Below, in pieces: positions 7,173 through 57,328 of a stretch of 64,000 bases of DNA (positions are counted from its first letter, which is position 1; every line of letters starts with the position of its first letter). The DNA comes from an uncultured Acidobacteriota bacterium. Its GTDB lineage: Bacteria; Acidobacteriota; Thermoanaerobaculia; UBA5066. The DNA lies in the NCBI GenBank assembly GCA_963779415.1, contig CAVZYA010000002.1, positions 288,001 through 352,000 of the forward strand. The letters run 5' to 3'. The notes below the pieces were generated by a model. The model did no database searches, was not told the DNA's origin, and saw nothing but the letters and a program-made list of their open reading frames with translations. The translations under genes were made by a program, and so were the position numbers.

Positions 7173-7379
7173 GGTAGATGCCTTTCATCAAGGGAGACGC
7201 GAGGGGAGGAAGTCCATCTCGGGACGCCCCCGCCGAAACAGGAGCCGGGCGCTGTCCGCCTCGGCGCGCTGGCCCCGGATTCACGCCGCAGCGCTACCGT
7301 CCCGCGCACGTCGGGGAGAAATGAGGCCTGACTCCACGTTTCGCTATTCCTGATGTCATGAAGATCACCTGGAGAACGC

Positions 7380-8231: not shown

Positions 8232-8255
8232 AAGACCCCGACGTGTGAGGACACC

Positions 8256-8645: not shown

Positions 8646-8665
8646 GTACCCGTCAAGGAGACACA

Positions 8666-9112: not shown

Positions 9113-9179
9113 TAAGAAGGCTACTTCCACGGAAGGAACCAGTACCCGCCGCATCGGACCCCCCTGGGAGGTCAGACCG

Positions 9180-12100
9180 ATGAGAAACGGAAAAGACGCC
9201 GTCTGCTTCACCGCCGGCATGGAGGGGGCGGCTTTTTCCGCCGGCGTCATTCACGCCTATCTCGCCGCGGACCGCGAGCCCCCGAAGGTCGTTGCCGGGA
9301 TCTCGATGGGCGCCTTGTCGGCCGCGGCCATGCAGAAGGCTTATCGCGACTTCCTTTCCCGGAAGAACGAGGGGATGGATACGGAGGCCGCGAGATGGGC
9401 CTGGTACCGAAGGTATCTGACCGAGCTTTCGGACCGGCCACTGGACGTGCTCTGGGAAGGCATTCCCGACCCTTCGGATTTCTTCGCCGAGATGCCTCCT
9501 GTCCGGAATCCCGCGGTGCCCGAGACCCTGCGGGAGGATCAGGAGCGAGCCCGGCGGAGCCGATTCCTGCTGCTGCGGCTCGGCCGCTGGTTGGCCGGAT
9601 TGCGCGTGACCGTCAAACAGGTCTTCGACCTTGCCGTCCAGTACGTCCGGTGGAAGGAGGGATATCCCGAGCCGGGCGTCCTGCCCGGGTTCGCTCCCGG
9701 GACGCGGCGCTTCCTCGGTTTCCTCCGCTCGGCGCTGGCCGCCGCTGCCCGGCTGATCGTCGCCGTCGCCTTTTCGGGTTTCTTTCCCGAACAGCTTTTT
9801 GACAAGGGGCAGGGGCGTCGGCCTCTCTTCGGCAGGAGCCTTTTCCTCGCCTCCTGGCTCGTGATCCTGTTCTTCCCGCTGCTTGCTCTCACCGCCGTTG
9901 GCATCTTTCCGGGAAGGATGTTCTGGGGAATCGGCCTGATCGTCGACGTTGCCATCGTGATCGCGATCGCCCGCCCCTACTTCAAGAAGGAGTGGACCCG
10001 CCGGGTTCTCCTGGACATCGGTATCGGACGGAGTCTGGTCAGCGACTTCCACCTCAGATGGAAGCTGATGAGGCTGTTCGACGTCAAGGAAGACGACCCG
10101 ATCGGCGACGCCCCGATGTCCGCTCTGATCGTCGCGGCCCCTCTTCACACCCTGACCCGGAAGACCGGAGCGTCGGCGGGCCAGCCGCTCGTGGCCTATC
10201 AGGTCTGGGCCGGTTCGAAAGTACCGCTGATCGAAGCCCTCGGGGCAGCACTCGCGCTTCCGGGCATCCTGCAGCCGTTCCCCGCGCGCGCCGCGAACAA
10301 GGACTCCGCAAGGGGTTGGCTGGGACCGGACGTGAACGGTCCCGACAAGGGGACGATCGACCTCGTGGACGGATCCGTCATCCGTCAGAACCCCATTCCG
10401 GCGCTCTTTCGATACCTGAAAGCGAATCCTCGTCTCGAGAAAGACCTTCGGGGAACCGGTCCCGAAGACGCGTCCGTTCACGTCGTCTACAGCGTTCCGG
10501 CCAAGCCCGTGTTTCACAACCCGGAGGGGACGTTTCCGGAGACGAAGGCCAACATCGTCGACGTGGCCCGCTTGAGCTCCCGGCTGGCCCGTCGGCGCGA
10601 CACGCAGGTCGAGGTGGCGCAGACCAATTTCATGAGCAGTCTGGCTGCCCTCGACGGCGGCGGCGGCCCGCGGCGCGGAAACCCCGAGGACCAGATCTGG
10701 GCCGTCTTCGCCGACGAGATCGCCCCGGACGAAGACCTCGGGTTCGAGAATCCCCTCAATCCTCTCCGCTCCGAAGTCCTGAAGCGGGCCGCCGGCGGAT
10801 GCCGTGCCACGCTCGAGCGGCTGTACGGAAAGCGGATCCTCGGGCTCGCGTCTGCGGGAGAGGGCGCGGCGGGCGGGGTGCCTTGCGCCCGCCTGCTCAC
10901 GGAGGTCGCAGCCGGACGGCACTCCGGCGGTGACGTGAGCTTCTTCCCCGGCGTGCCGGAGGTCTGCGGGGCATGCCCGAAGGTCCTCCGCCCGCCGGAG
11001 AGCGAAAAGGCGCTCCCGGCCCTGGACCCGATTCCGACGGTCGACACCGCGCTCGGCCTCCCGCCGGAGATCGTCGCGAACCTCCGCGGCGGGAAACCAC
11101 GAATCATCCTCGTGACGAGCGGCGGCGTCTTTCGGGGGTCGTTCCACATCGGCATGGCGGGCGCGCTCTGGGCCACCGACATCCGCCCCGATCTCATCGT
11201 CGGTGCCTCCGTCGGAACCCTCATGGGAGCCGCTATCGCGAAGATGTTCGACAGCCGCGACCCGGAGACGCTCGAGAAGCTCGTGACGCTCTTTCTGCGC
11301 GTCGACGAGAAGGTGGCCCTTACGAAAACGCTGAAGACGGCTTCCAGGGAGATCGGCGTCCGCGGGCGTTCCGTCGACCTTTCGCCGGCGGAGCTTCGGA
11401 GACTCATCCACGAGGGGAGCCGGGCCGACGCCGGCTTCGCCGCGGTCGGAGCGCCCCCGGCGCTCATCGACGCCATATCCGACCTTCTGATGATTCCCCA
11501 TCGTGAGACGAGCCGGATCGCCGCCGACTTCGTCGCCGGCCACATCACGAAGGCCGTCTATCGCCTGATGGGCCAGCTCAAGCGCGAAACGGTCCGCCGC
11601 CTCGATGTCGAGGACGCCATCATGGGAGTCACCCTCCTGGAGAAGGCCTTCCAGGGCGTCCTGTATGGAGAGTCGATGCCTCCCCCTCTGGCCTATTCCC
11701 GGCGCCAGCCTTTCGCCGGCGCCGGCATCGGTTTCTATTGCACGACGACCGATCTCGGGAGCGAAGCCGCCGTCATCCTCGGCGACGACACGCCTTTTCC
11801 GGGCAGGCCGTGGGATTTCATGGAGTGCTGCCTCGCCTCGAGCGCGTTTCCGGCCGTCTTCTCGCCGCGGCGAGAGAGCGACCTCTTCCCCGGCTCCGGC
11901 CTCTTCAACAGACGGTATGCCGACGGCGGCATGTTCGACAACCTCCCGTTCCTTCCCGCCATCCGGATTCTCGCGACGATCCAGTCCGAGCACCGCGAAC
12001 AGCTCTTCCCGAACGCCCTCGACGGGCTCCGCTCCCGGTGGGAACGCCCGGACCTGATGCTCGTCGGAGCGCTCGACATCAACCCCGAGGAGGCCCCGGA

Positions 12101-13794: not shown

Positions 13795-14958
13795 ATGGCC
13801 ACGCGTAAGAAGTTCCCAGGGCGCCCGGCGGCACGAGCGTCTTCCCGGACCCCAGCTGCCCCTCCCCGCCGTGCTCTCGTTCTCGCCGGAGGGGGCGCCC
13901 GCGGCTCGTATCAAGTCGGAATGCTCGACCACCTCGTCCGAAAGAAGAACCTGGACTTCCAGATCTTCCGCGGCGTCAGCGTCGGCGCCCTGAACGCCGC
14001 CTTTCTGGCCCAGGCTCCGGCCGGCCCCTCACCCGCCGACTCGCTCGCCAACCTCGAGGCGCAGACCAAGGCCCTCCTCGACCTCTGGACCACCGAGATC
14101 ACCGGCAACGCCTCGATCTACCGCGAGCGGCCGGGAGGCTTCGCCGGTCTTGCCCTCGGCGCCGACAGCCTCAACTCCAACGAAGCGCAGAAGAGACTGA
14201 TGGCCGCGCACCTCGACGAGAGGAAGCTCGCGGCCTCCGGCCGCGACTTCAAGGTCGGCTACGTCTCGCTCGTGAGCGGCCTTTACGAGGAGAAGGGGCC
14301 CGACGCTCCGTCGTTCCGCGAGCTGATCCTCGCCTCGTCGTCGATACCCGTCGTTCTCCCCTTCATCCTACGCGACGTACCCGGCGAGCCGAAGGACGTC
14401 CTCGTGGACGGCGGCGTACGGAACATCACGCCGCTCCGGAGCGCGTTTACCGCCAACCCGGCCGCCGATGAGATCTGGGTCCTCCTGACCAGCCGCGTCG
14501 ACCCGAAGCCGAACGGCGACCTTCCCGACTCGGCGGCGAAGGTCGAGACCTTCGACCAGTGGGACGACAACTTCCTCGGTACGAAGGTGAACGGCATCGA
14601 CGTCCTGACGCGCGCCGTGGATCTTCTCACCGACGAGATCTACCTCGGCGACCTCGACACGGCGCTGGACTGGAACACCTTGCTGACGCCCGTGGAGAAG
14701 CTTCTCGTCGCGGCAGGCGCCGGGCCCCTTCCGTCGGCACTCTCGTCCGCCCTGAATGACCTCCGCAAAGCCGCCGCCGACATCGGCAAGCGGGCCGTTC
14801 CGCTCTACGTCATCGCCCCTCGCGAGTGGTACGGCGAGCAGGCCAACGACGCCGACCGTGACAACAGCGCCATGAACTTCTCGCCCGCCGCGATCTCCCG
14901 GGCCATCGCCCACGGCCGCACCGTGGCCGCCAACCGCGCCCTCTGGATCCGGAAATGA
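13795..14958 (+). CDS. Patatin-like phospholipase
   Basis: AGGGARG, GVSVG, ASSSIP, DGG motifs. Confidence 0.92.
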   Translation: MATRKKFPGRPAARASSRTPAAPPRRALVLAGGGARGSYQVGMLDHLVRKKNLDFQIFRGVSVGALNAAFLAQAPAGPSPADSLANLEAQTKALLDLWTTEITGNASIYRERPGGFAGLALGADSLNSNEAQKRLMAAHLDERKLAASGRDFKVGYVSLVSGLYEEKGPDAPSFRELILASSSIPVVLPFILRDVPGEPKDVLVDGGVRNITPLRSAFTANPAADEIWVLLTSRVDPKPNGDLPDSAAKVETFDQWDDNFLGTKVNGIDVLTRAVDLLTDEIYLGDLDTALDWNTLLTPVEKLLVAAGAGPLPSALSSALNDLRKAAADIGKRAVPLYVIAPREWYGEQANDADRDNSAMNFSPAAISRAIAHGRTVAANRALWIRK

Positions 14959-15271
14959 CCATCCCTGCCACCGCCGAGAGACCCTGCCCGTTCTCTATCC
15001 CCTCTCGCGGTTTCCCCTCGGTTCAGCCAACACCTTCCCGAATCGCTTCGAGCCGGCAGCCCTTTCAGCCATGCCGAATCTCATACTCCTCCCGCCGCCA
15101 CTGCCCTTCGGTTGTCCAATTTCTGCCCTACTCATGCAACAAGACCGATGCCCGGCGCACATAACACAGAAATGAGACCTGCCCCGATCTTCTTTAGCGT
15201 CCCTTCCTCTAGCCGAGAACGCCACGATGCTGTCGATTACTTACAGCGCTATGCAACAACAGGAGACGCCG

Positions 15272-15562
15272 ATGAGTTCACCCGATCCTACGCTGAACGC
15301 TTATACCGGGACCCTCGTCCTAGACAATGCCATCCGCGAATCTTACCTAGCGTCTCCAGATACGTCAGGAACTACCAACAACGTCCTAATGATGCTCGAC
15401 CCTTCCCCATCAGGCGACTTCGATCCGGCTGAGGTCACGGCGGCGTACCTTTACTTCACAAACAAAGCTGGTGTTCATACCGGATCGACTATTACTGTAG
15501 TCGGGTTCTACGCTTATCCGCCAAACGGCAACCGACCTGCTATTCATGTCGTCCGAGCCTGA
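15272..15562 (+). CDS. Small hypothetical protein
   Basis: AGGAG RBS before ATG 15272; ends 18 bp before the next gene. Confidence 0.6.
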   Translation: MSSPDPTLNAYTGTLVLDNAIRESYLASPDTSGTTNNVLMMLDPSPSGDFDPAEVTAAYLYFTNKAGVHTGSTITVVGFYAYPPNGNRPAIHVVRA

Positions 15563-15580
15563 TGTTCGTGAGACCTTTCT

Positions 15581-17915
15581 ATGGTTTCATCCATCCGCCT
15601 AGCCATCGCCCTTGCTATCACGCTCTCGGCCTTTCCCCACCACGCTATAGGCCAAACAGCTATCCCTGCCGGCGCCCCACCTGAGCAGTTTCAACTCGAG
15701 AACGGTATCTACGTCGGTCAGCCAAAGGTATACGATGATAGATCTCTTCAACAGTTGCTCACCGCTCTCCGGGCACGCCTAGCCCTACTAACGGGCACAG
15801 ACCAAGCGTCTCTCCTCGCCCGTCTCGGCTCTCTCCAAGGCGCCTCCTCCAGCCAGTCCCAACTGTCCTTACAGGCCACCACATTACCTGTGCCCGGCTC
15901 AACGACCACTATGTCCTCCGGTAGTCCGTCGGTTGTCCAAACAGTAGGTAGCTCCACATCCAACGCGTCTGCCGGACCGTCCTTCACTGGGTCGAATCAG
16001 ACCGTAACCACAAACCCAGGCGCCACCACCCAACTGCAGACTACCGCTCCTGCAGTCACGCCCGGCCCATCCGCTTTGCCATCCAGCACCGCCCCTTCGT
16101 TTCCAAGCGTATTTTCTACTTCCTCCCTCGACACCCTAAACGAGCAAATGCAGCTTAGCTACGAATTGATCAATCTTCAAATGTTACTCCAGGGGTCCCT
16201 GAACGACGAATATGTTGCAGGGACCCATCTTGCCCGGAAGCACACCACCATAGGCTTTCCAATTAGCATACTTACGCCGCCGGACAAACGGTTCCGAAAT
16301 GCCGTTGCAGAAATTGAAGTCACAGTATGCAACCCGGATTTGGTGGATGATTTTTCGCCACCCTCTCTTATGACAATTCTTCCCCGCGAGAAAACATACA
16401 ATGTCGCCAGTATCGTCAGTAAGTCTACATCACTCGGCGTTGGAGCAGTTATCGGCGGGATCATTAACATTGGGGCGTCGTTCTTATCGGGGAGCCAGAA
16501 ATACTATCTGGTGAAAGATCAAGATACAGTAGCACTTCAGCGAAGGCCCCGCCTAGACGTCTGTACACCTTTTCAGCGCGACGGAGAGAGCATACCCAGC
16601 GTTCCCGTAACGTTTGCTTGGCAATTTCGTCCCGTCCTCGGCCAACACATACTTCAGCCGGGCCTGCGGCAGACCTTCGCACAGATATCGTTCGCTGCTG
16701 GGCCTCGGAATCCATCGAAGGTTCGGATTGTTTCGAGGTGGAGACACTATTGCGCCAAAACAGGGGTTGTGGGCGACGACGTCGACGGCTCAGCAGTGCA
16801 GCAGACTGAAACGATCGAGACTTTTTTTGCGGCTCCATATATTCAGGGCGTCTCCACTCTCGACAATCGCGATGGGACAATGACCGTTACGGTGGACGGC
16901 CATTTTCTACCTGGCTCGCGGATTCGCATTGGCGAGAATGTCATTGATGAATCCACGGCGACTTTTCAGAATACGCTTTCCTTTCTTAGATTTACGGCGC
17001 CGTCGCAGGCCATCGCACTAAAGGGTGCCAGCCTCGCCGGGCGGGACGGCGCCGAAAGTGAACTTCTCGCGCCTGAGCAGCAGAGCGCCTATGACGTTCC
17101 TGTCAAGGGGGCCGTGACTCTAAAGACCTTCAGCGATACGCTCATCGAGGTGACGGTACCAATCGACCCCGCGCAACCTAACCTGCCAACAGGCGGTCCT
17201 TATCCGCGGGTAGTGGTTTTGGGATCTAAGAGTTTTGGTTTGAGCGATGCACCTTTTCGGTCCGAGACACAGAGCGGCGTCTCGTTCTTGGCACCAAAGG
17301 AACTCTTAGCCGGGCAGGTGCGATTGTTGAGCAAGCGCCTCTTCCTCGGCAAATCGTTTGCCGAACAATACCAGTATCGCACCCTTAGGAGAAAGCGCCG
17401 TTTCCGGGATAGTCGTTTTGGTTGCCAGCAAGAAGCACACTCGAATAGCCGTCACGGGTAGTAAACTGAAGAGCGCAAAGATCCTATACCCCAAGGGCAT
17501 TCAGCTGGACGTCACGGACGACGAGACGTATGCTGAATTCGACATTCTAGGCGCACCCTCGGACGGGTTGAAACAAATCGTCTTTCAGATTGGTGGCGGC
17601 GCACCTCCCGCTATAGTGCCTCTGCCTGAGGCGAAGTCAGCCGTAGGTAAGCCAACGTTGAATCCGCACGATCCCATTATTGTGGGAGCCGGGGTGACGT
17701 ACTCAATAGGCGGTTCACTCCTTGATTCCCTAACCTGTGTTCGCTATCTTGGAAAGCAACTAGCTTACAGCCTCGCACTCGACAAGAGGTCAATCAACGT
17801 TAAACTGCCTGATGAAATTACTAGCACGCCTGGTATTAGACGGCTGGAGCTGACATTTTCCGACGGATCGACGCAGCCATTATTGATTACAGTCACTCTT
17901 CCGACGCGACAGTGA
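15581..17915 (+). CDS. Large secreted protein with Ser/Thr-rich region and IPT/Ig-like C-terminal domains (frameshift near 17370)
   Basis: Signal peptide; ORFs 15581-17461 and 17358-17915 overlap and join; TVTVDGHFLPGSRIRIG and YSIGGSLL are IPT-like. Confidence 0.65.
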
Positions 17916-18053
17916 GCAAACAGGACGCTTTTCGTGTTGGACGCATTGACAAGCACGCGTGTCTTGGGCAAGGGTTTCTTAGATCGGCGTGTAACCTCTT
18001 TCACCGTAGCATTCTGATTTCCCCCGAACGTCGGCTGGGGTTGAGGAGAAGGT

Positions 18054-19714
18054 ATGCCAGAGTCTGCAACTGTTCACGCCGCGGTCAATTCAATTCAGGC
18101 GGCCAGAATAGCGGCCCGAGTGGCTGACGCCGCCGTGACTGCCGCGGAGAAGGCGACTTCGGCCGAAACTGCGGTCGACGCTGCAAAGACCGCGGCGGTC
18201 GGGCCGCCACCGCCGCCAGCGCAGCTGACGCCGCCAAGGACGCCGGCGATAAGGCGACCCAGACCTTGAGGGCTGCTGACGCCGCCAAGGAGGCCGCCGA
18301 AATCGCACTTCACGCCGTGGATGTTTCCAGGGCCGCCTACGACGCCGCGGTCCGAGCCATGGACGCCGCCACGGCGGCCGAAGTTAGTAACGCCGCTGAC
18401 GCCCAAAGAGCTGTCGAAATTACGAGGTCAGCCTTGTCCGTCAGCGAGTTCGCGGCGAGGGCTGTTGCGGCCTCTACCGACACCGCCCGCGGAGCAGAGG
18501 AGGCCGCGGGCTTAGCTGAGAGAGCCGGCCACGCCGCCGGGAAGGCAGTTGACGCAGCCAAGGCAGCTGATACCGCCAACGACGCCTCGATTAGGGCGGC
18601 GGCGGCCGCAAAGGCAGCTGAGGGCACGCCCGAGGCCGCAGCTACGACCGACGCAGCCAAAGCGGCAGCTGTTGCTGCAAACGAAGCGAACGCTGCAAAG
18701 GTTAATGCCGCCCAGGTGGCAGCGACGGCCGCGAACAGCGCCGCAGCCGGAGCCGCCCAAGCCGTCAGGGCAGCCACTACTGCCGACGACGCAGCGAAAG
18801 AAACCGCCCGGGCTGCGAAGATAAGCCGCTTACCTCCGAAGAACGATACGAGTCCGTTTTACGACAACATCAGCGTCGGTAAACGGACCTCAGGCGGGGA
18901 TATCGTCAGGAAGATATTGTATGGCAGTCACAAATTTGTCATCTACGTGGACGAGGAGGACGAACTCCGATGCAGCTATGACGAGACTACTTGTATTGAC
19001 GGCGACAAGTACGTTGTCGAGGCCTACGATCTTTACTCTGAACTTCACGCCATCGCCTTGAGTAAAGACGCATTCAAGGAGGGCAGGCGTTTGATCGGCG
19101 CTGGCCTTTCATTTGCCTTCGAAACACAGAAGAAAGATGATAGCACCGACTTCTTCAGGAGTGCTCGCTCGTTCATAGATAATAAGGCTGCCCAATATGG
19201 ACAAGGCATATATCTTCTTTTCGCCGCTGGTTTCTTCCTATTGTTGACACCCTTCTTGTACTATCCTTGGTTTCCTGGGCTCGACGCAAGCAACAAACAT
19301 TTTGCTTGGGGTATATTCTTTGGCGGCGTTGGCGCTATGCTGTCTGTGTTGATTCGTTTCAAGAACACCGAGCTTCCGCGTTATGCGGAACCGATAGTTA
19401 TCGGAATAAGCGGCGTGATTAGGATCGCCTTGGGCGCTACCTTTGGCATCGTATTTGTGTTGCTACAGAAGGCTGACTTTCTCTTGGGGGGTCTTACAAA
19501 GAACAACGGGGCTGCGATCGCGTTATTTGCCATAGTTGCAGGTATGAACGAGAAGTTTGTACCTGATCTGCTTTCGCGGGCAGTGCCAGCAGCTGGAGAC
19601 ACACCCGATGGTGCCAAGGATGCCGCAGGCAAGGCGGCTCAGGCGGCGACAGCCGCTGCTAATGTTGCTAACGATGCCGCCAACAGGGCGAAGCAAGCTG
19701 CAAAAGGAGTGTAA
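18054..19714 (+). CDS. Ala-rich coiled-coil protein with C-terminal 4-TM domain (frameshift near 18200)
   Basis: GAGGAG RBS; Ala-rich repeats continue across the frame change; GGVGAMLS...RIALGA...AGMNEKFVPDLL TM module. Confidence 0.7.
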
Positions 19715-42297: not shown

Positions 42298-43902
42298 CTA
42301 CTGCGGGCCGCCCGGCTCGAAGGTCGTGACGATCGGGATGCTCGTCGAGCGGGCGAAGCGCTCGTCGAACGCTTCCGCGAGGACCCGGCCGTCCATGTCG
42401 CGGGCCATCGGCTCGCCGGCGAGGACGAGAAGCGTCGGCGCGAGGTCGAGGAGCTGCGCCGAGGTGAGTCGAACTCCCGACCGGATCCCCGCGCCCGCGA
42501 GAAGGAGGAATCCGTCGGCCCCCGCGTCCGGGCTGGCGGAGGGGGGCACGGCCCGTACGAACGCACCGACGGCGTCGAGCGGCGGCGGCGGGCCGAAGGA
42601 GACGGGGGAGAAGACGCAGATCGTCCGGTCGCGTCCCTGCCGCTCCAGGAGTTCGTGGAGGAGATCGTCGAGAAACCGATAGTACGCGTCGAGCGCGCGG
42701 GACTTCGGCCCGGCGTCCGGAACGGGGAGCCCCCAGTAATGGGCATCCCCGGCGGCGCCAAAGGGACGTGAGACGAGGGTGGTCCCCGAGAGGACCAGAA
42801 CGAGCACGTTGCTCGGCCCCTGTGGCGGCGTCCCGAGAGCGGCGCCGAGGATCGTCAGGTCCTCCGCCGCGGCCCGGAGCGTCGTCCGGGCCGCGAGCTC
42901 CGTGGAGAGCCCTGCCGGCACGAGGCTCCGGACGAGGGGGCGGTCGAGGTGGGACGGGTCGACACGGAAGAGCTCCAGCCGGTCGTCCCCTTCGGAGGCA
43001 GCCGCCGCGGGCCAGCCGAGGACCGAGGTTTCGTGCCCGAGACGCGCGAGGATCTGCCAGAACGCGAGGCTCCGGCTTTCGGGGGGCGCCGGTCGCGGCC
43101 GCGTGAAGGGGAGCCCGAGCCGAAGCGAGCTTCCCGGCAGAAGCGTCCGGAGGCGAAGCGGTCCGGCAGGCGTCTCGCGCACCTCCTCCGAGACGACGCC
43201 ATGTTTGAAAGGGCGCTTTCCGGTCGCGGCCGTCGTCCAGAGGGCCGCGTGTTCGACCGCCGCGACGCTCGCAAGGGGACCGGCCGCCCCCTTCTTCAGA
43301 AGCTCGGCGAGAGTCGGGAGGGATCCCTCCGACGCCCCCGCCGTCACGCGTTCCCACGAAACCCCTTCCAGCCCGACGATGAGAAGGCTCCGCCGGGCGG
43401 CTGCCGGGAGAGACGGCAGCGTCGCGAGCGCCGCGGGGGGGGCGGCACGCCCCGAAAGGAGCGGCATCGCGAGAAAGAGGACGAAGAAGAGCGCCGGGAG
43501 CGGAGCCGCGTGTCTCGCGTGACCCGGCCTCAGGAAGGCCGAGACGAGCGCCACGAGAGCCCAGAGCCCCGCCACCACCGCGGAAGCGCCGAGGACGCGC
43601 CGCGCGCCCCCGGCGACGAAGGTATAGAAGATCAGACGCTGCGCCTCGGCGAACGCCGCGAAAAGAGCGGCCGCAAGGGCGAAAAGGAAAGCGCCCCCCC
43701 GGACTCCGCCTCGCGAGCGCGCCGGAAGAAAGAGAAAAGGCGTCGCGACGAGGACGCCCCCCGCTGCCGAGAGTAAGCCGAGGGTAAGGGCCCGCGATGG
43801 AGTGAGGAGCCCGGGGTTGAGGCCGAGGAGAAGGTCCGCCCATGCCGCGCCCGCCGCCGCTCCGACGACGAGGGGGTGGAACCGCCGGAGGGCCTCGCTC
43901 AT
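42298..43902 (-). CDS. Membrane-anchored alkaline phosphatase/phosphodiesterase-superfamily protein
   Basis: N-terminal TM helices; WTTAATGKRPFKHGV; DLAPTLL; MDGRVL. Confidence 0.75.
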   Translation of the reverse strand: MSEALRRFHPLVVGAAAGAAWADLLLGLNPGLLTPSRALTLGLLSAAGGVLVATPFLFLPARSRGGVRGGAFLFALAAALFAAFAEAQRLIFYTFVAGGARRVLGASAVVAGLWALVALVSAFLRPGHARHAAPLPALFFVLFLAMPLLSGRAAPPAALATLPSLPAAARRSLLIVGLEGVSWERVTAGASEGSLPTLAELLKKGAAGPLASVAAVEHAALWTTAATGKRPFKHGVVSEEVRETPAGPLRLRTLLPGSSLRLGLPFTRPRPAPPESRSLAFWQILARLGHETSVLGWPAAAASEGDDRLELFRVDPSHLDRPLVRSLVPAGLSTELAARTTLRAAAEDLTILGAALGTPPQGPSNVLVLVLSGTTLVSRPFGAAGDAHYWGLPVPDAGPKSRALDAYYRFLDDLLHELLERQGRDRTICVFSPVSFGPPPPLDAVGAFVRAVPPSASPDAGADGFLLLAGAGIRSGVRLTSAQLLDLAPTLLVLAGEPMARDMDGRVLAEAFDERFARSTSIPIVTTFEPGGPQ

Positions 43903-43935
43903 AATCCGCGCCCGGCGAGTCTCGCCCCCCTCACG

Positions 43936-44742
43936 ATGCCCGTCAACGAAGCTCTGCGCGTCCTCAGGACCGTCCATTACGACGCGACGCACTACTCCCT
44001 CTTTCTCCAGGCGGGAACCATCGGGCCGGAGACGAAGCCGGGGCAGTTTGCGATGCTTCAGGCGGGGGAGGGCCTCCGACCCTATCTCCGGCGCGCCTTC
44101 TCGATCGCCGACGTCACGAAGCTCGCCGGCGTTCCCGCGATGGAGTTCGTCATCAAGGTGGTGGGGATCGGGACGGGGCTCCTGGGGCGCTTCGCCGAAG
44201 GGACTCCGATCCCGGTCCTCGGCCCGCTCGGCGTTCCGTTTCCCACGGAGGACCTCACGTCCGCGGACCGGGTCGCCCTCGTGGCCGGCGGGATCGGCCT
44301 GGCGCCGCTTCTCCTCCTCTCGCGCGAGCTCTCGGCGCGGGGCGTCTCGGCGGACCTCTTCTACGGCGGACGGAACGAGACGGACGTCCTCAAGCGCGCC
44401 GACTTCGCACGCTTCCTCGGACCGCACCGCTGCCGGTACGCGACGGACGACGGCTCGCTCGGCCGGAAGGGGCCGGTCACCGACCTCGTCTTTCACGCCC
44501 TGGAAGGAGGAGTCCGCTGGAAGCGTCTTTTCGCATGCGGCCCTCTCCCGATGTTCCGGACTCTCGCGGCAATCGTCGAGGAAGCGAAGCTGGACGCCTC
44601 CTTCGCCCTCGAATCGGAGATGGCGTGCGGCTTCGGCGTCTGCCTCGGCTGCGTGGCGCCGACGGTGGACGGCCGATTCGCGACCGTCTGCACCGAAGGC
44701 CCCTGCGTCCCTCCGTCGGCCGTCGACTGGAGCCGGGTGTAA
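43936..44742 (+). CDS. pyrK: Dihydroorotate dehydrogenase electron transfer subunit
   Basis: PGQF, GPLG, GGIGLAP, MACGFGVCLGC...C Fe-S motif. Confidence 0.93.
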   Translation: MPVNEALRVLRTVHYDATHYSLFLQAGTIGPETKPGQFAMLQAGEGLRPYLRRAFSIADVTKLAGVPAMEFVIKVVGIGTGLLGRFAEGTPIPVLGPLGVPFPTEDLTSADRVALVAGGIGLAPLLLLSRELSARGVSADLFYGGRNETDVLKRADFARFLGPHRCRYATDDGSLGRKGPVTDLVFHALEGGVRWKRLFACGPLPMFRTLAAIVEEAKLDASFALESEMACGFGVCLGCVAPTVDGRFATVCTEGPCVPPSAVDWSRV

Positions 44743-45692: not shown

Positions 45693-46423
45693 GCGACATC
45701 CCCCGCTCCCGCCTCGCCGTCGCCCTCGACCTCCCCACGCGCGACGCGCTCCTCGCCGCCGCCCGGACCCTCGCGACCGAGGTGGGCGTTCTGAAGCTCG
45801 GCCTCGAGGCGTTCGTCTCCGAGGGACCGGGGCTCGTTCGCGACGTCACGGCGGCCGGAGCCCGCGTCTTTCTCGACCTGAAGCTCCACGACATTCCGAA
45901 CACCGTCGGGCGCGCCGCTGCCGCGGCCGTCCGGACGGGGGCGTCGATCCTGAACTGTCATGCGGCGGGCGGCCCCGAGATGATGAAGGTCTTCGGTGCC
46001 GAGAGCCGCGAGGCCGCTTCGAAGGCCGGCCTCTCCCTCCCCTCCCTCATCGCGGTCACGGTCCTGACCTCGCTCGATCCGGAGACCCTCTCGAGGATCG
46101 GATTCTCCGGAACGCCGCGCGAAGCCGCGGTCCGGCTCGCGATTCTCGCGAAGGAGTCGGGCCTCGACGGGGTCGTCTGCTCGCCGGAAGAGGCCGCGGC
46201 GATCCGCGCGGCCTGCGGGAAGGATTTTCTCCTCGTCGTCCCCGGCGTCCGCCCCGCCGGCACCGAGACGGGCGACCAGAAGCGCGTGTCGACGCCCGGT
46301 GACGCCATCCGCGCCGGCGCCGACCTCCTCGTCGTGGGCCGCCCCATTCTCGCCGCCACGGACCCCGTCGCCGCGGCGCGGGCCATCGTGGCCGAGATCG
46401 CCGCGGCAATAGCCGACGTCTAG
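45689..46423 (+). CDS. pyrF: Orotidine-5'-phosphate decarboxylase
   Basis: DLKLHDIPNT, VTVLTS, PGVRP, DQKR. Confidence 0.95.
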   Translation: MSDIPRSRLAVALDLPTRDALLAAARTLATEVGVLKLGLEAFVSEGPGLVRDVTAAGARVFLDLKLHDIPNTVGRAAAAAVRTGASILNCHAAGGPEMMKVFGAESREAASKAGLSLPSLIAVTVLTSLDPETLSRIGFSGTPREAAVRLAILAKESGLDGVVCSPEEAAAIRAACGKDFLLVVPGVRPAGTETGDQKRVSTPGDAIRAGADLLVVGRPILAATDPVAAARAIVAEIAAAIADV

Positions 46424-46524
46424 GAGCTGGAAACCTTTCCCCGACGCGCAGGGGCGACTCCCTGCAGGAGCAGACAGCGGAGGTAAGGCCTGGCTCCGCC
46501 CGGCGCAATCCGGCGTGAAGAGCG

Positions 46525-48108
46525 TCACCTCTCGAAAGGAGGCGGGGCTGATCCCGTCGCCGCCGCCTTGTCCGGCAGACCCGAATCCTTCGAGAAGCCG
46601 GCAAAGGAACGACGGAAGGCGCCGTCGCCGGACCAGACGGGAGTCGCCTTGTAGCGCCAGTGGGCCGCGTCGCCACCGTCCGCCTGTTCGTGCATCGCGA
46701 GGGTCCGGATCTGGCTCTCGAAGACGAGGCCGTCCGAGGACCTGACGCAGGTATGGAGGCTCCGGTACCCGTTCTCCTTGGGCTGGGCGATGTAGTCCTT
46801 GAACCGCAGGAGCAACGGCTCGAACCGCTCGTGGATCGCCTTCAGGGCGCGGTAGCAGTCCTTCTCGTCCATGACGATGATCCGGAACGCGACGATGTCG
46901 TGAACCTGGTCGATGGCGAGGCCCTTCGACAGCGTCTTTTTCCAGATTCCCGCCGGGTGCTTGACCCGGTATTGCAGGGCCTTGTGCCGCACGCCTGCCT
47001 CGGCGAGGGCTTTGCGGATCTCCGACTCCCGTTTTCGCAGCCAGGCCTTGTTCGTCGCGGGCAACTTCGCGAGTCGTCGGTTGATTGCTTCGAATGCCTC
47101 GGGCTCGAGGATCCGGAAAGCGGCGTCCTCGAGACGCGACTTCAGCCCGCTTTCTCCCAGCCGCTCGGCCTCGAGGACGTCACGTTCCCAGGTTTCCCTC
47201 GCGGCGGCACGGGCCCCGGCGTCCTTCGGGCCCCGAGTCTCCAGGAATCGGCAGCGCGAAAGGAAGTAACGACGGAGGAGTTTCCTGTGGAAGGCGGCTT
47301 CCTCGTTCGACTCCGGCGCGGCGTGATCTTCCACGGGCACGGGGGGCCTTCCGTCCGCGGCGAGGAGCGATTCCTGCCTCAGTCCGAACAGGGCACGGCG
47401 TTCGGCCTCGACCAGCCGCCTCACCGTCTCCTCGAGCTGCGTTCCGAGGTTCCTGAACCGGTAAGCGAGCCAGCGCATCTCCCAGGCACCGCGCGGAATC
47501 TCGAGCCCGCTCCAGTAGCCCTTCTCCATCTGGTCCACGCCGTGCAACAGCCGGCGCAGGGGCCGGTCTATCAAGAGCTGGTAAGCGACGTAGAGCGAGA
47601 GAAGGATGGATGCGATGGCCGCCGCGATGCTCAGGACCCAGAACCACCAGCGCCGATTCACCAGCGACTGGAACTCGGCGCCGTCCTGCCAGACTTCGAG
47701 CGTTCCGCGGCCGCCGGGGAGGAACTCCGAGACGACCGGGACCCCGCCACGGAGCGAGCCGGGGGGTGGCTCCCGCTGCGGGCCCGTAAGGAGGGAATCC
47801 ACCGGGCGACCTTCGGCATCGAGGAGGAGCGTGTGCAGGTGTCTGTACCCGCGCCTCGTGTGCGCCTCCCCGAAGGCCTGGAGCCGCTCCCGGATGGCCT
47901 CGATGTCCGGCGAAGCCTCGATGTCCGAGGCGAGCGGCGCGGCGGCCTGTCCCATCAGCTCCTCGCGATCCTGGCGGGACCGCTCGACATCGTTCTCCTG
48001 GAAGAAGAAGGTCAACGAGCCGAGAACCAGCGTCACGATCACCGAAGTCGACAGGCCGAGCCGCCAACGGAGAGGCACGCCTCGCGGCGGGGCGTCGTTC
48101 TGGCTCAT
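46525..48108 (-). CDS. Membrane sensor-HAMP / RelA-SpoT (p)ppGpp synthetase fusion
   Basis: Two TM helices, HAMP (PLRRL...EMRWLAYRFRNL), then RVK, DIVAFR, RFKDYIAQPKENGYRSLH, ESQIRT, AAHWRYK. Confidence 0.85.
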   Translation of the reverse strand: MSQNDAPPRGVPLRWRLGLSTSVIVTLVLGSLTFFFQENDVERSRQDREELMGQAAAPLASDIEASPDIEAIRERLQAFGEAHTRRGYRHLHTLLLDAEGRPVDSLLTGPQREPPPGSLRGGVPVVSEFLPGGRGTLEVWQDGAEFQSLVNRRWWFWVLSIAAAIASILLSLYVAYQLLIDRPLRRLLHGVDQMEKGYWSGLEIPRGAWEMRWLAYRFRNLGTQLEETVRRLVEAERRALFGLRQESLLAADGRPPVPVEDHAAPESNEEAAFHRKLLRRYFLSRCRFLETRGPKDAGARAAARETWERDVLEAERLGESGLKSRLEDAAFRILEPEAFEAINRRLAKLPATNKAWLRKRESEIRKALAEAGVRHKALQYRVKHPAGIWKKTLSKGLAIDQVHDIVAFRIIVMDEKDCYRALKAIHERFEPLLLRFKDYIAQPKENGYRSLHTCVRSSDGLVFESQIRTLAMHEQADGGDAAHWRYKATPVWSGDGAFRRSFAGFSKDSGLPDKAAATGSAPPPFER

Positions 48109-48151
48109 CGACGGAAACCCTCATTCATCGATCGTGCCATCCCAGAGCGCG

Positions 48152-48547
48152 CTACTCGACCTTGATCCTCTCGTAGTGCTTCGGAGCGGCTTCGCCCTTC
48201 CCCGCGGCCCGTTCCGCGAGAACGATCTCCTCGTCGAGGAAGTCGCGAAGGGCCTTGAGAATCTCCACGCCCGAGAAAGCCGCGCGCCCGAGCGCGGCGC
48301 GGCCGGCGAGGGAGAAGGTGAATCGCCCGATGAGGTCCGCGGCCGGTTTCAGGAGGCAGTTGTCTCCGCCGCAGGCGAGCCCCGGGATCGGCCCCGCCGC
48401 GGAGGGGGAAGAAGCCTCCGGCTTCGGTGCGTGCGGCTCGGCTTTTTCTCCGGGGCCGAAGTCACGCTCGATCGGGTCGACGTCGGCACTTCGCCGGCGT
48501 GTCCGGCCTGGAGACTTCCTCTTTCGCCCCGCTTTCGCGTCGCTCAT
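48152..48547 (-). CDS. Small hypothetical protein coupled to the ArsA-family ATPase
   Basis: ATGA overlap with the upstream gene; C-terminal ERIKVE. Confidence 0.7.
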   Translation of the reverse strand: MSDAKAGRKRKSPGRTRRRSADVDPIERDFGPGEKAEPHAPKPEASSPSAAGPIPGLACGGDNCLLKPAADLIGRFTFSLAGRAALGRAAFSGVEILKALRDFLDEEIVLAERAAGKGEAAPKHYERIKVE

Positions 48548-49782
48548 CTTTTCCTCCCCGGCTCGGCCACGTGTGCCGCCGGCGCTCCCGCTTCGGACTT
48601 CCCCTTCGCGAACCGGACGACGAGCTTCCCGTCCTCCACCTTCGCGGCCGAAGGGGCGAGCCCGCCGAGCGTCCGCGGGATCGGGATGTGGTGCCGGACG
48701 TTCCCGATCCGGACGATCAGGTCTCCCGAGGCGACCGCCAGTTCCACCTCGTCCTTCTCGACGAACGGCAGCTCCAGCGTCAGGACGTAGACGCCGCCGC
48801 TCTTGGCGAACCGGTAGGGAGGCGTGACGCGGTACGAGGCCGCCGGATTCCGGTCGCCGTAGAGGTCGCTCCCGAGCCGGGCGAGCGCCTCGCGCCCCAC
48901 GACCTGGTCGTCGCGAAGCGGCAACGTCCAGATCGGGACCGGGTCGAAGTAGCGCCGCGCCTCCTCGAGGAACTGCGCCTGCGTCCTTCTCCACTTGTCG
49001 AAGAAAGGGTCCGCCACGTCGTCGGGGAGGAGGCGGTTCACGAGGACGGCGTCGACCGTGAAACCGTAGAGGCCGAAGTACATGAACGCGCGCTGGGTCT
49101 CCCGGATGACGATCTTCTCGGCGTTCGTGACGAGCCGGACTGTCGTCGTCTTCGGGTCCTTCAGGAGGGCGTCGACGCCGTCCAGCTTCTCGGCGAGCGA
49201 CGCGACGTTGTCGAAGTACCGCTCGGGGGGGAGCGGGACGTTGGCGACCTTTTTCGCCATCGGGCGCGCCACCTTCAGGATCGTCCGCTGGATCCGGAAG
49301 AGCTTCTTCATGTACCAGTCGAGCGTCGGCGGCAGGGAGACGAAGCGGAGCGACTCGCCCGTCGGCGCGCAGTCGAGGATCAAAACGTCGTACGCCTTCT
49401 CGCGCGCGTAGCGGTTGACGTAGAGGAGGGCGGAGACCTCTTCCATGCCGGGGAAGATGGCGAGCTCCTCGGCGAGGACCTCCTCGACGCCGGTGACGGC
49501 GAGGAGGGCCGCGATGTACCCGGCGATGTCCTTCCAGTGCCGGCCGATCTCCTCGGTCACGTCGACTTCCTGGATCCAGAGATTCTCCGCGACGGCCACC
49601 GGCTCGCCCCGGTTGCGGTCCGTGAGGCTCACCGGGAGGTCGAAGGCATCCGCGAGGGAGTGCGCGGCGTCCACGGACATGACGAGCGTCCTTGTGCCGC
49701 GCGCGGCCAGCGTCAGCCCCGTCGCCGCGGCGACGGTCGTCTTTCCGACGCCTCCCTTTCCCGTGTAGAGGAGGATCCGCAT
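48544..49782 (-). CDS. ArsA/Get3-family ATPase with HSP20-like C-terminal domain
   Basis: TGKGGVGKTT, DAAHSL, DCAPTG; C-terminal alpha-crystallin-like strands. Confidence 0.9.
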   Translation of the reverse strand: MRILLYTGKGGVGKTTVAAATGLTLAARGTRTLVMSVDAAHSLADAFDLPVSLTDRNRGEPVAVAENLWIQEVDVTEEIGRHWKDIAGYIAALLAVTGVEEVLAEELAIFPGMEEVSALLYVNRYAREKAYDVLILDCAPTGESLRFVSLPPTLDWYMKKLFRIQRTILKVARPMAKKVANVPLPPERYFDNVASLAEKLDGVDALLKDPKTTTVRLVTNAEKIVIRETQRAFMYFGLYGFTVDAVLVNRLLPDDVADPFFDKWRRTQAQFLEEARRYFDPVPIWTLPLRDDQVVGREALARLGSDLYGDRNPAASYRVTPPYRFAKSGGVYVLTLELPFVEKDEVELAVASGDLIVRIGNVRHHIPIPRTLGGLAPSAAKVEDGKLVVRFAKGKSEAGAPAAHVAEPGRKR

Positions 49783-49840: not shown

Positions 49841-50836
49841 TCAGGTGGCTCCGAGCTTCTCGCCGAGGCGCCAGCAGAGGGCCGCCAGGAGAAGCCCCGC
49901 ATAGCCGTCCACCGCGTAATGCCAGCCGGTGACGAGCGAGCCGTAGAAGGTGAGCCCTGTGGCTGCGGCGAAAAAGATGAAGAGAGGCCGACTCCGTCTT
50001 CGCGCGAAGAGAGCGAGAAACGCGTGCGCCGCCACGTGGAGACTCGGCATCGCCCCGATGCCGAGGACCGGGAGGATCCGAATCGTCTCGTCCTGCGCCG
50101 CCGCGCCGAGGAGTGCGCGGTAGTGGGTCATGAGGATCTTCTGCGTCGCGGTCTGAAGGGGGAGGTTCTTCGCCGCCTGGGCGTAGTCCGCCGCGTAGAC
50201 GTAGCAGGGGCCAAGGGACGGGACGACGACGTAGATCCAGGCCCCGAGAAGCCAGAGGAGCGCGAAGCCCGCCGCGAAGCGGGCCCGCTCGGGGCGCGAC
50301 GGGGCCGTAAGGAACCACGCCATTCCCGCAACCGTGAGCGGGACGAACGCCGCGTAGTAGACGTCGATCGCCCGGAGGAAGAAGGGCCACGGGAAAAGGC
50401 CGAGCGCGAAAGGTCCCGGATTCAGTCCGAAATGGATCGCGGCGTCGAGGCGGGCCAGCGACCCGTCGAGGAGCTGCGGGTTCAGGAACGGCACGATGAC
50501 CTTGAGCCAGACATGGCCGTAGTAGACGAGGCTCGCGCCCGCCACGAGGCGGACGAGATCGAAGGCCGAGCGGGGACGGAACGTCATCGAGAGGAGCCGG
50601 CCGGCGCGCGGCGTCCCTCCGGACGCCGCGAGAGCGGCCGCTCGCACGGCCACCGCTCCCAGAACGAAGAGCGCCATCGGAATCGCGAAAAGGCGGATCC
50701 CGCGGAGCGTCCCCCACGGGAGAGAGGGGAAGCGGCCGACGGCACGGACGAGGACGAGGACCGCCGCGACGTGGAGAAGGACGAGAATCTCGTAGACGCG
50801 CGGACGGAGCCGGCGCACGAGGCCGGCCGGCGTCAT
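49841..50836 (-). CDS. PAP2-family (IPC-synthase-like) membrane protein
   Basis: PSLGP, AMPSLHVA, WHYAVDG. Confidence 0.85.
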   Translation of the reverse strand: MTPAGLVRRLRPRVYEILVLLHVAAVLVLVRAVGRFPSLPWGTLRGIRLFAIPMALFVLGAVAVRAAALAASGGTPRAGRLLSMTFRPRSAFDLVRLVAGASLVYYGHVWLKVIVPFLNPQLLDGSLARLDAAIHFGLNPGPFALGLFPWPFFLRAIDVYYAAFVPLTVAGMAWFLTAPSRPERARFAAGFALLWLLGAWIYVVVPSLGPCYVYAADYAQAAKNLPLQTATQKILMTHYRALLGAAAQDETIRILPVLGIGAMPSLHVAAHAFLALFARRRSRPLFIFFAAATGLTFYGSLVTGWHYAVDGYAGLLLAALCWRLGEKLGAT

Positions 50837-51846
50837 GCCCGCCGCCCGGGCGGCCGGCCCGCCCATCGCGCCGCGAGAGCGGCCATCACGAAGCCGGCAT
50901 AGCCGTCCACGGCGTAGTGCCAGCCGGTGACGAGCGAGCCGAAGAACGTCAGGGCGGCCGCCGTCGTGTAGAGAAGGAAGAGGGGCCGGCTCCGGCGTCG
51001 CGCGAAGAAAGCCACGTACGCCTGGGCCGCGACATGGAGACTGGGCATGGCCGCGACGCCGAGGACGGGGTCGATGACCATCCCTTCGGCGCCGCTCGTC
51101 CGGAGGCCCCGGACCAGGCGGTACTGCCGGAGGAGCCGTTCCTGCGTGAACGTCTGGAGCGGCATCGACCGCCGGGCCTCGACGAAGTCTCCGGGAAAGG
51201 CGTAGCACGGCCCGAGGCTCGGCACGGCGAGGTAGAGCCATGCCGAGGAGAGCCAGAGAACGGCGAGCCCGGAGGCGAACCGCGTCCGCTCCGCGATCGA
51301 GAGGCCCGTCGCGAACCAGCCGACGGCGATGAGGACCGTCGCGAGAAAGAGGCCGTAGAACGAATCGAGCGCGTGGAGGAGAGCCGGAAACGGAAGAAGC
51401 TCGAGGGCGAACCGGTTCACGTCCAGGCCGAGGTGGAGGGCGGCATCGAGGCGGGCGAGAGCGGCGTCCCGAAGCGACGCGTTCAGGAGCGGGACGGAGA
51501 CCTTGAGCCACGAGTAGCCGTACGCTGCGAGGGAGAGGACGGCGAAGAGGCGGACGAGGTCGACGAGGGGGCCGGGACGGACGAAGGCGCGAAGGAAGCG
51601 GCCGGCGCGACGGCTCCCCCGCCGCGCCGCCACCGCGCCCGTCCGGACGAGGAGCGCCGCGAAGACGAAGAGCGCGAGAAGGCCCGCGGCCGTCCGCGTG
51701 CCGGCCAGAGTTCCGAGGATCGGAAGGTCGATTCGCGCGACGCCCCGGATCAGGGCCACGACGACCACGACCTGCAGGATGACAAGGATCTCGTAGGCGC
51801 GGACGGGACGAAGGAGTCGTCTGCGGCCGCGGCCCGCCGTCACCAC
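50833..51846 (-). CDS. PAP2-family (IPC-synthase-like) membrane protein, paralogue
   Basis: PSLGP, AMPSLHVA, WHYAVDG. Confidence 0.85.
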   Translation of the reverse strand: MVTAGRGRRRLLRPVRAYEILVILQVVVVVALIRGVARIDLPILGTLAGTRTAAGLLALFVFAALLVRTGAVAARRGSRRAGRFLRAFVRPGPLVDLVRLFAVLSLAAYGYSWLKVSVPLLNASLRDAALARLDAALHLGLDVNRFALELLPFPALLHALDSFYGLFLATVLIAVGWFATGLSIAERTRFASGLAVLWLSSAWLYLAVPSLGPCYAFPGDFVEARRSMPLQTFTQERLLRQYRLVRGLRTSGAEGMVIDPVLGVAAMPSLHVAAQAYVAFFARRRSRPLFLLYTTAAALTFFGSLVTGWHYAVDGYAGFVMAALAARWAGRPPGRRA

Positions 51847-57116: not shown

Positions 57117-57255
57117 GCGCACCCTCCCTGAAAAAGGAACGGGCGCCGTTCGGCGCCCATCTTCATCCCGCGAGAAAACCGGCGCCGCGCGGCGCCGGAG
57201 GAGATCGTGATTTCGCTTCGCACCCCTTGCTTCTCTCCTCCACCGGCGGGACCGG

Positions 57256-57328
57256 TGGGTCCGCCCGGATTCGAACCGGGGACCTGCCGGTTATGAGCCG
57301 GTGGCTCTGACCGCTGAGCTACGGACCC
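57256..57328 (-). tRNA. tRNA with CAT anticodon (likely tRNA-Ile2; elongator Met not excluded)
   Basis: GGGTCCG acceptor stem, TAGCTCAG D-arm, CTCATAA loop, GGTTCGAATCC T-arm. Confidence 0.92.

Follow-up and report, generated by a model that had tools for sequence, protein, structure and literature searches.

A candidate membrane receptor-type alarmone synthetase with a HAMP-like module in Thermoanaerobaculia

Control of the known synthetases of the alarmone (p)ppGpp comes from ribosomes and tRNA, from partner proteins in the cytoplasm, at the level of transcription or from the product of the enzyme itself. Other second messengers, namely c-di-GMP and cAMP, are known to be under the control of HAMP receptors, and HAMP-adenylyl cyclases exist (for example, mycobacterial Rv3645). 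Here we describe a gene that appears to bring a HAMP-type receptor module and a synthetase of the RelA/SpoT homologue (RSH) family together in one protein. It lies at 46525..48108 on the minus strand of a 64,000-nucleotide stretch of DNA (hereafter the window; positions 288,001 to 352,000 of contig CAVZYA010000002.1) from an uncultured bacterium of the Thermoanaerobaculia, a class of Acidobacteriota known mostly through metagenomes, in which signalling has been little explored.

A preliminary description of this DNA had proposed such a receptor and had held its architecture to be uncharacterised. Our searches of the full-text literature likewise found no description of a HAMP- or transmembrane-linked RSH synthetase, although classification supplements, which these searches did not cover, may list the family. 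The main text of a study that classifies RSH proteins into 30 subgroups (PMC3153485) contains the words HAMP and transmembrane 0 times, as does the main text of a study that recognizes 30 subfamilies of small alarmone synthetases (SAS), 11 of small alarmone hydrolases (SAH) and 13 of long RSHs (PMC7229694). Some source annotations of related proteins already read 'ppGpp synthetase/.../HAMP domain-containing protein'. Because the architecture is visible to annotation pipelines in this way, the novelty should be sought in recognizing and characterizing the family, and not in a new fold or a new chemistry.

The reading that we consider best, and to which we give a slightly better than even chance of being correct, is that the gene encodes a dimeric, signal-gated, synthetase-only RSH of the inner membrane that makes (p)ppGpp.

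Gene layout and a Rel-type catalytic half

The open frame encodes 527 amino acids followed by a stop codon (protein P0001), and its start codon is supported by the N-terminus MSQ..PLRWRLGL, which is kept in homologues. Exactly two hydrophobic segments are evident by Kyte-Doolittle analysis (residues 17-36 and 154-180), with a loop of 117 residues between them. One Arg-rich segment lies ahead of the first and another behind the second, so the positive-inside rule would place the loop outside the cytoplasm and the Arg-rich N-terminus within it. RelA_SpoT is the sole Pfam domain in P0001 (PF04607; residues 381-488, E 1.2e-36, 125.9 bits against a cut-off of 27), and HD, HD_4, TGS and ACT have no Pfam match in this protein, in agreement with the absences noted previously. 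The translation contains every motif that had been quoted (YRVKHPAG, HDIVAFRIIV, RFKDYIAQPKENGYRSLHT, FESQIRT and AAHWRYK), together with the linker ARETWERDVLEAERLG..KSRLEDAAFRIL.

A whole-protein AlphaFold2 model was built from an alignment of 30 sequences (mean predicted local distance difference test score, pLDDT, 78). In its N-terminal half, it has helices at 13-64 and 69-85, strands at 91-97, 119-126 and 134-141, a helix at 144-195, a connector at 196-208 and a helix at 209-242. The order of parts that had been proposed (a transmembrane helix, an outside loop, a second transmembrane helix and a fused RSH synthetase) is upheld by the hydrophobicity profile, Pfam, AlphaFold2 and the homologues. 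The features of the gene are as follows.

46525..48108, minus strand: whole gene, read as a membrane receptor-type synthetase-only RSH (open reading frame list and translation)
48001..48060, minus strand: first transmembrane segment (TM1), residues 17-36, after the Arg-rich N-terminus (Kyte-Doolittle peak up to 1.92; helix 13-64 in AlphaFold2)
47650..48000, minus strand: predicted extracytoplasmic sensor domain, residues 37-153, PDC/Cache-like, two helices and three strands (AlphaFold2 domain model)
47569..47649, minus strand: second transmembrane segment (TM2), residues 154-180 (Kyte-Doolittle peak up to 2.24; continuous helix 144-195 in AlphaFold2)
47383..47568, minus strand: HAMP-like module, residues 181-242 (secondary structure and homology)
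47308..47382, minus strand: variable linker, predicted to be disordered, residues 243-267 (pLDDT below 50 over 243-266)
46999..47307, minus strand: long-RSH-type helical region, residues 268-370 (BLASTP, TIGR00691, VIA)
46645..46998, minus strand: RelA_SpoT synthetase domain, residues 371-488 (Pfam, invariant columns, alignment to Bacillus subtilis Rel)
46528..46644, minus strand: variable basic C-terminal tail, residues 489-527, predicted to be disordered (pLDDT below 50 over 480-524; 16% mean identity)

Mean identity within the family differs widely among these segments, being highest in the HAMP-like module (75%) and lower in the synthetase domain (67%), the extracytoplasmic domain (47%), the linker (20%) and the C-terminal tail (16%).

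The catalytic half is of the Rel type. The NCBIfam model for long RSHs (TIGR00691) aligns residues 301-488 with profile positions 132-318 at 205.5 bits, which is below its cut-off of 499.2, and the model for RelQ/YjbM-type proteins (NF053588) gives 38.5 bits against a cut-off of 320. A profile of the family matches N-terminal structures of Rel and RelA with E values of 1e-56 to 1e-47, beginning at about residues 94-160 of those chains, whereas RelP and RelQ structures are matched at 1e-18 to 1e-13 and over the synthetase core only. Structure comparison with VIA follows the same pattern. Long Rels give Z scores of 15.8-17.8 over about 200-217 residues (model 264/275-481 against chain positions of about 129-350, at 30-36% identity); for RelSeq, the match runs in the model from 264/268 to 481 against RelSeq 129-336. 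SAS structures reach Z 10-13.6 (up to about 14) and cover the model only from 333-340 to 484. By each measure (205 versus 38.5 bits, 1e-56 versus 1e-18, Z 16-18 versus 10-14), the earlier assignment to a Rel-type rather than a RelP/RelQ-type output is sustained.

Similarity to long RSHs also extends upstream of the synthetase core. A BLASTP comparison with the long RSH encoded by the same genome (730 amino acids) gives 38% identity between residues 296-487 and 152-342, and residues 296-370 face Rel positions 152-230, a helical region that is contiguous with the synthetase domain. Because profile and structure comparisons agree, we assign the roughly 70 residues before the core to the helices that link the hydrolase (HD) and synthetase domains in long RSHs, presumably those called the 'central three-helix bundle'. 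The same likeness had been drawn in the preliminary description, and TIGR00691, BLASTP and VIA all bear it out. In Rel, the counterparts of the five helices of the region (268-291, 297-316, 320-334, 336-348 and 354-370) lie at the end of the HD domain, in the central helix bundle and at the start of the synthetase part. Helix 268-291, in which C286 and R287 are nearly invariant and L289 is invariant, may represent what is left of the last helix of the HD domain; the stretch 262-300 aligns with low posterior probability.

The synthetase domain carries RVK, D404, R409, RFKD, K444, N446, Y448, H452, E464, Q466 and R468. Thirteen residues are invariant in 30 sequences that range down to 43% identity. 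Seven of these (R381, K383, K391, D404, R409, K437 and D438) align with R241, K243, K251, D264, R269, K297 and D298 of B. subtilis Rel, and the remaining six (K444, Y448, H452, E464, Q466 and R468) align with K304, Y308, H312, E324, Q326 and R328. We take these Rel residues to be the ATP-, Mg- and guanine-contacting and catalytic residues of the enzyme. The RxKD motif, present here as RFKD, marks Rel/SpoT-type enzymes.

In a tree of the Rel-like region that contains 73 family members and 80 long RSHs (the long Rel of the same genome and 79 from many phyla), the family falls on one side of a branch with an SH-aLRT value of 100. Since the tree is unrooted and holds no SAS sequences, it establishes a single family and we claim no ancestry from it. 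The preliminary description derived the gene from a long Rel whose hydrolase and ribosome-sensing parts had given way to an envelope sensor, a direction of evolution that such a tree does not show. A phylum-wide search with PF04607 matched 149 of 151 genomes, the matches listed being almost exclusively long RSHs.

Given this conservation, we consider it very improbable that the protein is a catalytically silent relic, whether a nucleotide-binding pseudo-enzyme or a scaffold. A patchy distribution and one copy that is split into two frames (both described below) could be taken to favour such a relic, but every residue aligned with the Rel active site is invariant in the 30 sequences and the synthetase domain retains its 67% mean identity.

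A different product or acceptor must also be weighed. The protein might make (p)ppApp or pGpp, or might pyrophosphorylate tRNA as do toxSAS and CapRel proteins, and thus act as a growth-arresting toxin or a defence effector. The RelA_SpoT fold is common to such enzymes; CapRel, Tas1 and FaRel2 appear among the structural matches (Z 7.4-10.2), and residues 356-474 are matched by PDC-S33 (E 8e-16), a PADLOC family that shows a protein of the RelA_SpoT fold among candidate defence genes. However, no structure of the SAS or toxin type comes near the scores against long Rel (205 bits, Z 16-18), and no antitoxin-like partner in a two-gene arrangement is conserved among the 14 loci compared below. 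Two invariant features, the RFKD motif and the Tyr that aligns with Rel Y308, in our view also speak against a product of this kind. PDC-S33 was rejected as a defence identity, the match covering only the shared synthetase fold and lying far below the long-Rel score. We therefore judge a different product to be decidedly unlikely and, from the sequence comparisons, (p)ppGpp to be the probable one.

Predicted sensor domain, HAMP-like module and possible coupling

When the outside domain is folded alone, AlphaFold2 returns a model with a pLDDT of 85. Its best VIA match is CitA (Z 8.0, root-mean-square deviation 3.4, 97 residues aligned), followed by PctA, LapD-like CdgS9, TlpB, CusS, WalK and CpxA. 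Foldseek ranks CusS first at E 0.02 and returns nothing for this domain at E ≤0.001. PDC/Cache domains combine a long helix at the N-terminus with an antiparallel sheet in the centre that is flanked by helices, and in the present domain only three strands are predicted. Given that VIA scores near Z 8 are common among unmatched models, according to the tool's own note, a PDC/Cache-type sensor fold is likely for this model but not proven.

Directly after TM2, a helix-connector-helix hairpin is predicted (AS1 at about 183-195, connector 196-208, and AS2 plus an extension at 209-242) in which P183, G197, E210 and W213 are invariant. The diverse family member P0158 carries a Pfam HAMP match at 181-227 (25.6 bits against a cut-off of 25) together with RelA_SpoT at 378-488. 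Residues of about 140-250 align, at E values down to 7e-9, with histidine kinases and with an HD-GYP-type protein, all from the phylum, and in the three such proteins that were scanned, Pfam HAMP falls inside the aligned stretch (for example, HAMP 335-386 within 302-406 in L086). The family profile matches TM2 and HAMP of the Tsr chemoreceptor (195-311) at E 0.005, and ESM language-model features of residues 30-245 lie nearest to clusters of HAMP-bearing sensors (score 0.97). Because this module is the most conserved segment of the family, ahead even of the synthetase domain (75% versus 67%), it appears to be more than an anchor.

A homodimer of residues 12-490 was predicted in three runs alongside three controls. 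The interface score ipSAE was 0.43 (median of three runs) compared with 0.00 (best of three controls), the mark applied to this score being one that is reached by 20 of 30 solved homodimers and by 1 of 23 solved monomers. The runs agreed in at least 78% of their contacts, and pLDDT was at least 69. The predicted contacts are symmetric and involve TM1, residues 40-61 and 78-91, TM2, and residues 184-197 and 208-236. The last two ranges lie in the HAMP-like module and, as a prediction, fit the parallel four-helix bundle that HAMP hairpins form in a dimer. The dimer model suggested in the preliminary description thus passes its controls through the transmembrane, sensor and HAMP parts and supports a homodimer, although the pass may partly reflect its likeness to solved kinase and chemoreceptor dimers.

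Several observations weigh against a signal-gated receptor, and most of them concern the path from the sensor to the enzyme. The linker between the HAMP-like module and the catalytic part is variable (20% identity), is modelled with low confidence (pLDDT below 50 over 243-266) and has a length of 25-60 residues; in 102 family proteins, the motifs on either side of it are separated by 39-72 residues. Because this linker is not the continuous signalling helix that is typical of HAMP-kinase and HAMP-cyclase receptors, mechanical coupling is doubtful, and the flexible tether seen in the model speaks against transmission to the enzyme through a rigid helix. Confident contacts in the dimer model end at residue 236. 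For the sensor fold, the match is of middling quality (Z 8.0, Foldseek E 0.02) and names no ligand. Pfam HAMP (PF00672) has no match in P0001 at E ≤1, is found in only 2 of 30 close family members at that threshold (best 0.006) and in only 1 of 10 diverse members at E ≤0.1. The HAMP domain previously claimed for this protein is therefore supported through P0158, the kinases, Tsr, ESM and AlphaFold2, but not by Pfam in P0001 itself. Finally, the genomic comparisons presented below reveal a distribution so patchy within the family of the source organism that the function should be dispensable. They also reveal 13 loci of relatives without any gene of the window's neighbouring run within about 9 kb, and no conserved neighbour or partner emerges when the open reading frames of 14 loci and the window are clustered all against all.

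The weakest link in our reading is control of the synthetase by HAMP, and the main rival addresses exactly this step. It holds that the protein is a membrane-tethered alarmone synthetase that is not ligand-gated, with transmembrane segments, sensor and HAMP serving only to anchor and dimerize it. Activity would then be set by expression, substrate supply or product feedback, as in RelP and RelQ. The flexible and variable linker suits this explanation, as do the lack of confident dimer contacts in the modelled residues 268-490 and the fact that neither Foldseek nor VIA identifies a ligand pocket or a named sensor family. However, a HAMP hairpin and a folded outside domain would be superfluous in a plain anchor. 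Moreover, the HAMP-like module is the most conserved segment (75%), the extracytoplasmic domain has 47% identity with invariant positions, and the helix past the linker (268-291) is conserved at C286, R287 and L289. We regard an ungated anchor as unlikely and, on balance, rather expect that the sensor and HAMP gate the activity of the enzyme. It is important to note that we infer this gating, as we do the product and the existence of a ligand.

Distribution, gene neighbourhood and other features of the window

Of the 8000 candidates that were scored in a word-indexed protein search, 1233 matched at E ≤1e-3. The top 120 of these 1233 are mostly 490-580 amino acids long, cover about 90-100% of the query at identities down to 44%, and carry PF04607 in 118 cases. 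The N-terminal 260 residues, which comprise the sensor and HAMP-like module and no catalytic part, were compared separately with all 1.84 billion cluster representatives, whatever their length. At E ≤1e-3, 109 representatives matched, of which 76 remained at ≤1e-10 and 36 at ≤1e-30. Domains were scanned in 107 proteins (106 of the 109 and the query), where RelA_SpoT occurs in 64, HAMP in 17 and HisKA/HATPase_c in only 4; the kinases form a weak tail of matches, and the remainder are short gene calls that are probably partial. Given 64 proteins with RelA_SpoT against 4 with HisKA, the sensor module is essentially dedicated to synthetase output.

Among 401 genomes sampled from the class, the module is present at E ≤1e-15 in 39, where it forms part of a single open frame of about 520-700 amino acids, which excludes a chimeric assembly. 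A fusion absent from relatives had been named as a possible weakness of the preliminary description, and these 39 genomes instead share the full-length architecture. There remains the suggestion that an assembly or gene-calling artefact has joined a sensor gene to a truncated rel gene. It can draw only on the public contigs that match the gene stretch, which are short pieces of at most 466 nt, none spanning the whole gene. Against it stand the 39 genomes, out of 401 assembled independently, that share the single open frame, more than 100 proteins of metagenomic origin from several sources, and 14 loci with different flanks, and we consider its probability to be negligible. That the architecture is real and conserved is almost certain.

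The gene is unevenly distributed. In the class sample, it is confined to two families, f1 (20 of 37 genomes) and f7 (18 of 64), with G000 not counted, and 0 of 299 genomes in the 21 other families hold it. Within the window's own family, it is present in one of two genomes of the same genus besides G000, in 4 of 19 genomes of genus g2 and in 10 of 10 genomes of genus g231. A phylum-wide sample of 401 genomes gave a full-length match in only three (G000, G246 and G165); the other 44 matching genomes align only over residues of about 120-256 (E 7e-9 to 1e-3). Three unpublished genomes (G024, G049 and G152) enter these tallies only, as non-holders of the gene. The source names of the best matches are Thermoanaerobaculia and Acidobacteria, with a few metagenome-bin labels reading 'Deltaproteobacteria' or 'Gammaproteobacteria bacterium'. 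An ESM Atlas cluster of 148 members (score 0.99), mostly Pseudomonadota among the 34 members of known phylum, is a lead only.

A profile scan of genome contigs with the family alignment used synthetase-domain patterns, and 80 loci were kept from at least 600 matches. Among the matches listed, 79 of the 80 loci begin at about query residue 216 or later (mostly 280-314), which is the Rel-like half, and they resemble long RSHs from many phyla. The exception is L003, from a Thermoanaerobaculia record, which matches further upstream (query 108-486) and was taken as a family member. Because the matches fell on the Rel-like half, the scan is no guide to the range of the family, and the long RSHs were used in the tree described above. 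Only small shares (at most 0.15) were found in 11 metagenome runs from soil, sediment and the subsurface, and no RNA run is listed among the public runs that match, which is uninformative on expression or habitat.

One copy in family f7 (L143, genome G564, 9282-10960) is split into frames of 327 and 233 amino acids that match query residues of about 1-238 and 300-487. The split would stem from a frameshift or pseudogene, or else from an error in assembly.

In the window, the RSH gene is the last of a minus-strand run that contains lepA, lepB (Peptidase_S26), an open reading frame (ORF) of 122 amino acids, an S4-domain gene, two PAP2_3 genes, ArsA-HSP20 and an ORF of 132 amino acids; pyrF and pyrD converge on it from the opposite side. 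A run of lepB, PAP2 and ArsA genes ending in the RSH gene had been reported before and is present as described. The hint of envelope stress that had been drawn from these neighbours finds no support. When about 20 kb around the gene were fetched in 14 relatives and 15 window proteins were compared with them by tblastn, the neighbours proved to be kept at only one of the 14 loci, that of a member of the same genus (L130, genome G420). As the neighbourhood is kept only within the genus, it lends no support to a hint about the input signal. At L130 (about 6871-9849), some 3 kb are inserted between the homologue of the 132-amino-acid ORF and the RSH gene, and thus the RSH gene is not obligatorily co-transcribed with the ArsA run. 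The ORF clusters that recur in many loci are the RSH gene itself and overlapping alternative frames. A scan of 46200-48700 gave 0 promoters and 0 terminators.

A cluster of histidine kinases found at five loci was rejected as an orthologous partner, as the architectures differ. At three loci of family f7 (L137, L139 and L143), a histidine kinase adjoins the RSH gene, and these proteins have the arrangements PAS-histidine kinase-receiver, HAMP-histidine kinase and PAS-histidine kinase, respectively. Such adjacency may be due to chance in kinase-rich genomes.

Beyond the RSH gene, other features of the window deserve mention. The 132-amino-acid ORF (48152-48550, minus strand) comes directly after ArsA-HSP20 and 43 bp upstream of the RSH gene, has no Pfam match, and has a counterpart of 66% identity at the equivalent position in the same-genus genome. 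Two tandem paralogous PAP2_3 membrane phosphatase genes (49841-51846, minus strand) are both kept in that genome. At 42298-44496 on the minus strand, just beyond the pyr genes, the longest open frame has 732 amino acids; a type I phosphodiesterase/nucleotide pyrophosphatase domain lies in its C-terminal 400 residues, with hydrophobic stretches further upstream. At 13795-19714 on the plus strand, two long ORFs (626 and 482 amino acids) without a Pfam match follow a patatin-like phospholipase gene. The GC fraction there falls to 0.54-0.59 at 16-20 kb, compared with about 0.65-0.72 elsewhere, and this low-GC stretch may be foreign DNA. The window's only Rfam/ARAGORN match is a tRNA-Met gene (CAT) at 57254-57328 on the minus strand.

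Proposed function and comparison with known systems

The genome has two RelA_SpoT genes, the RSH gene of the window and one long RSH (HD_4 plus RelA_SpoT), and its sole HD_4 match lies inside that long RSH (741-amino-acid frame). Our preferred reading, a signal-gated (p)ppGpp synthetase of the inner membrane, can be set out on this background. The protein would form a homodimeric receptor in which two transmembrane helices per chain flank a small PDC/Cache-like domain outside the cytoplasm. TM2 would lead into the HAMP hairpin, and from there through the flexible linker to the long-RSH helices and the intact RelA_SpoT domain, which would move pyrophosphate from ATP onto GDP or GTP to give (p)ppGpp. 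A cue from outside or from the membrane would alter the state of HAMP and thereby turn synthetase activity up or down, so that the alarmone pool would be fed independently of ribosomes. The single long Rel, with the only HD_4 hydrolase in the genome, would break the product down. The fullest form of this proposal is a one-component transmembrane stringent-response receptor in which the PDC-like domain and HAMP read a cue and produce (p)ppGpp without ribosomes or tRNA. We advance it tentatively, as its chances fall just short of even.

If true, this family would provide the first HAMP-coupled alarmone synthetase, and (p)ppGpp would join the second messengers that are controlled by HAMP. It would also constitute a new output class of HAMP receptors and would link the alarmone pool directly to the surroundings of the cell or to its envelope. 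Given the flexible tether, its coupling would have to differ from that of kinases and cyclases, whose signalling helix is rigid. Because the catalytic part is close to the well-studied Rel enzymes, and because the family is compact and conserved, standard assays should be applicable.

The closest described enzymes are the long Rels (RelSeq and those of B. subtilis, Staphylococcus aureus, Thermus thermophilus and Mycobacterium tuberculosis), with which the family shares the pre-synthetase helices, the synthetase domain, an RxKD-type motif (RFKD) and the full aligned active-site set. It differs from them in having no HD hydrolase and no TGS, helical, ZFD or ACT/RRM domains, and in being inserted in the membrane, its outside sensor and HAMP standing where long Rels have the parts that sense ribosomes and tRNA. 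RelQ and RelP (YjbM and YwaC) resemble it as synthetase-only RSHs that exist beside one long Rel and have the synthetase fold in common. However, these are soluble proteins of about 200 amino acids that form tetramers, whereas family members such as P0001 (527 amino acids) add two transmembrane segments, HAMP and the long-RSH helices.

The toxSAS systems, as presented in PMC7229694, are operons of two or three genes that include an antitoxin, in contrast to this family, where only the RSH gene is common to the 14 loci and the window. An RSH enzyme that is controlled by a fused signal-sensing domain has a parallel in Rsh4, for which Table 1 of PMC3153485 lists an EF-hand. Rsh4 is a soluble eukaryotic protein of plastids with a C-terminal EF-hand, whereas the sensor of the present family is N-terminal and transmembrane.

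Finally, the family is like the HAMP receptors (histidine kinases, chemoreceptors and HD-GYP or GGDEF proteins) in its TM1, PDC-like domain, TM2, HAMP and predicted dimer, and differs from them in its output, a putative (p)ppGpp synthetase, and in a linker that is predicted to be disordered rather than a continuous signalling helix. The family is thus neither a long RSH nor a RelP/RelQ-type SAS, and would seem to work like a HAMP receptor with a new output.

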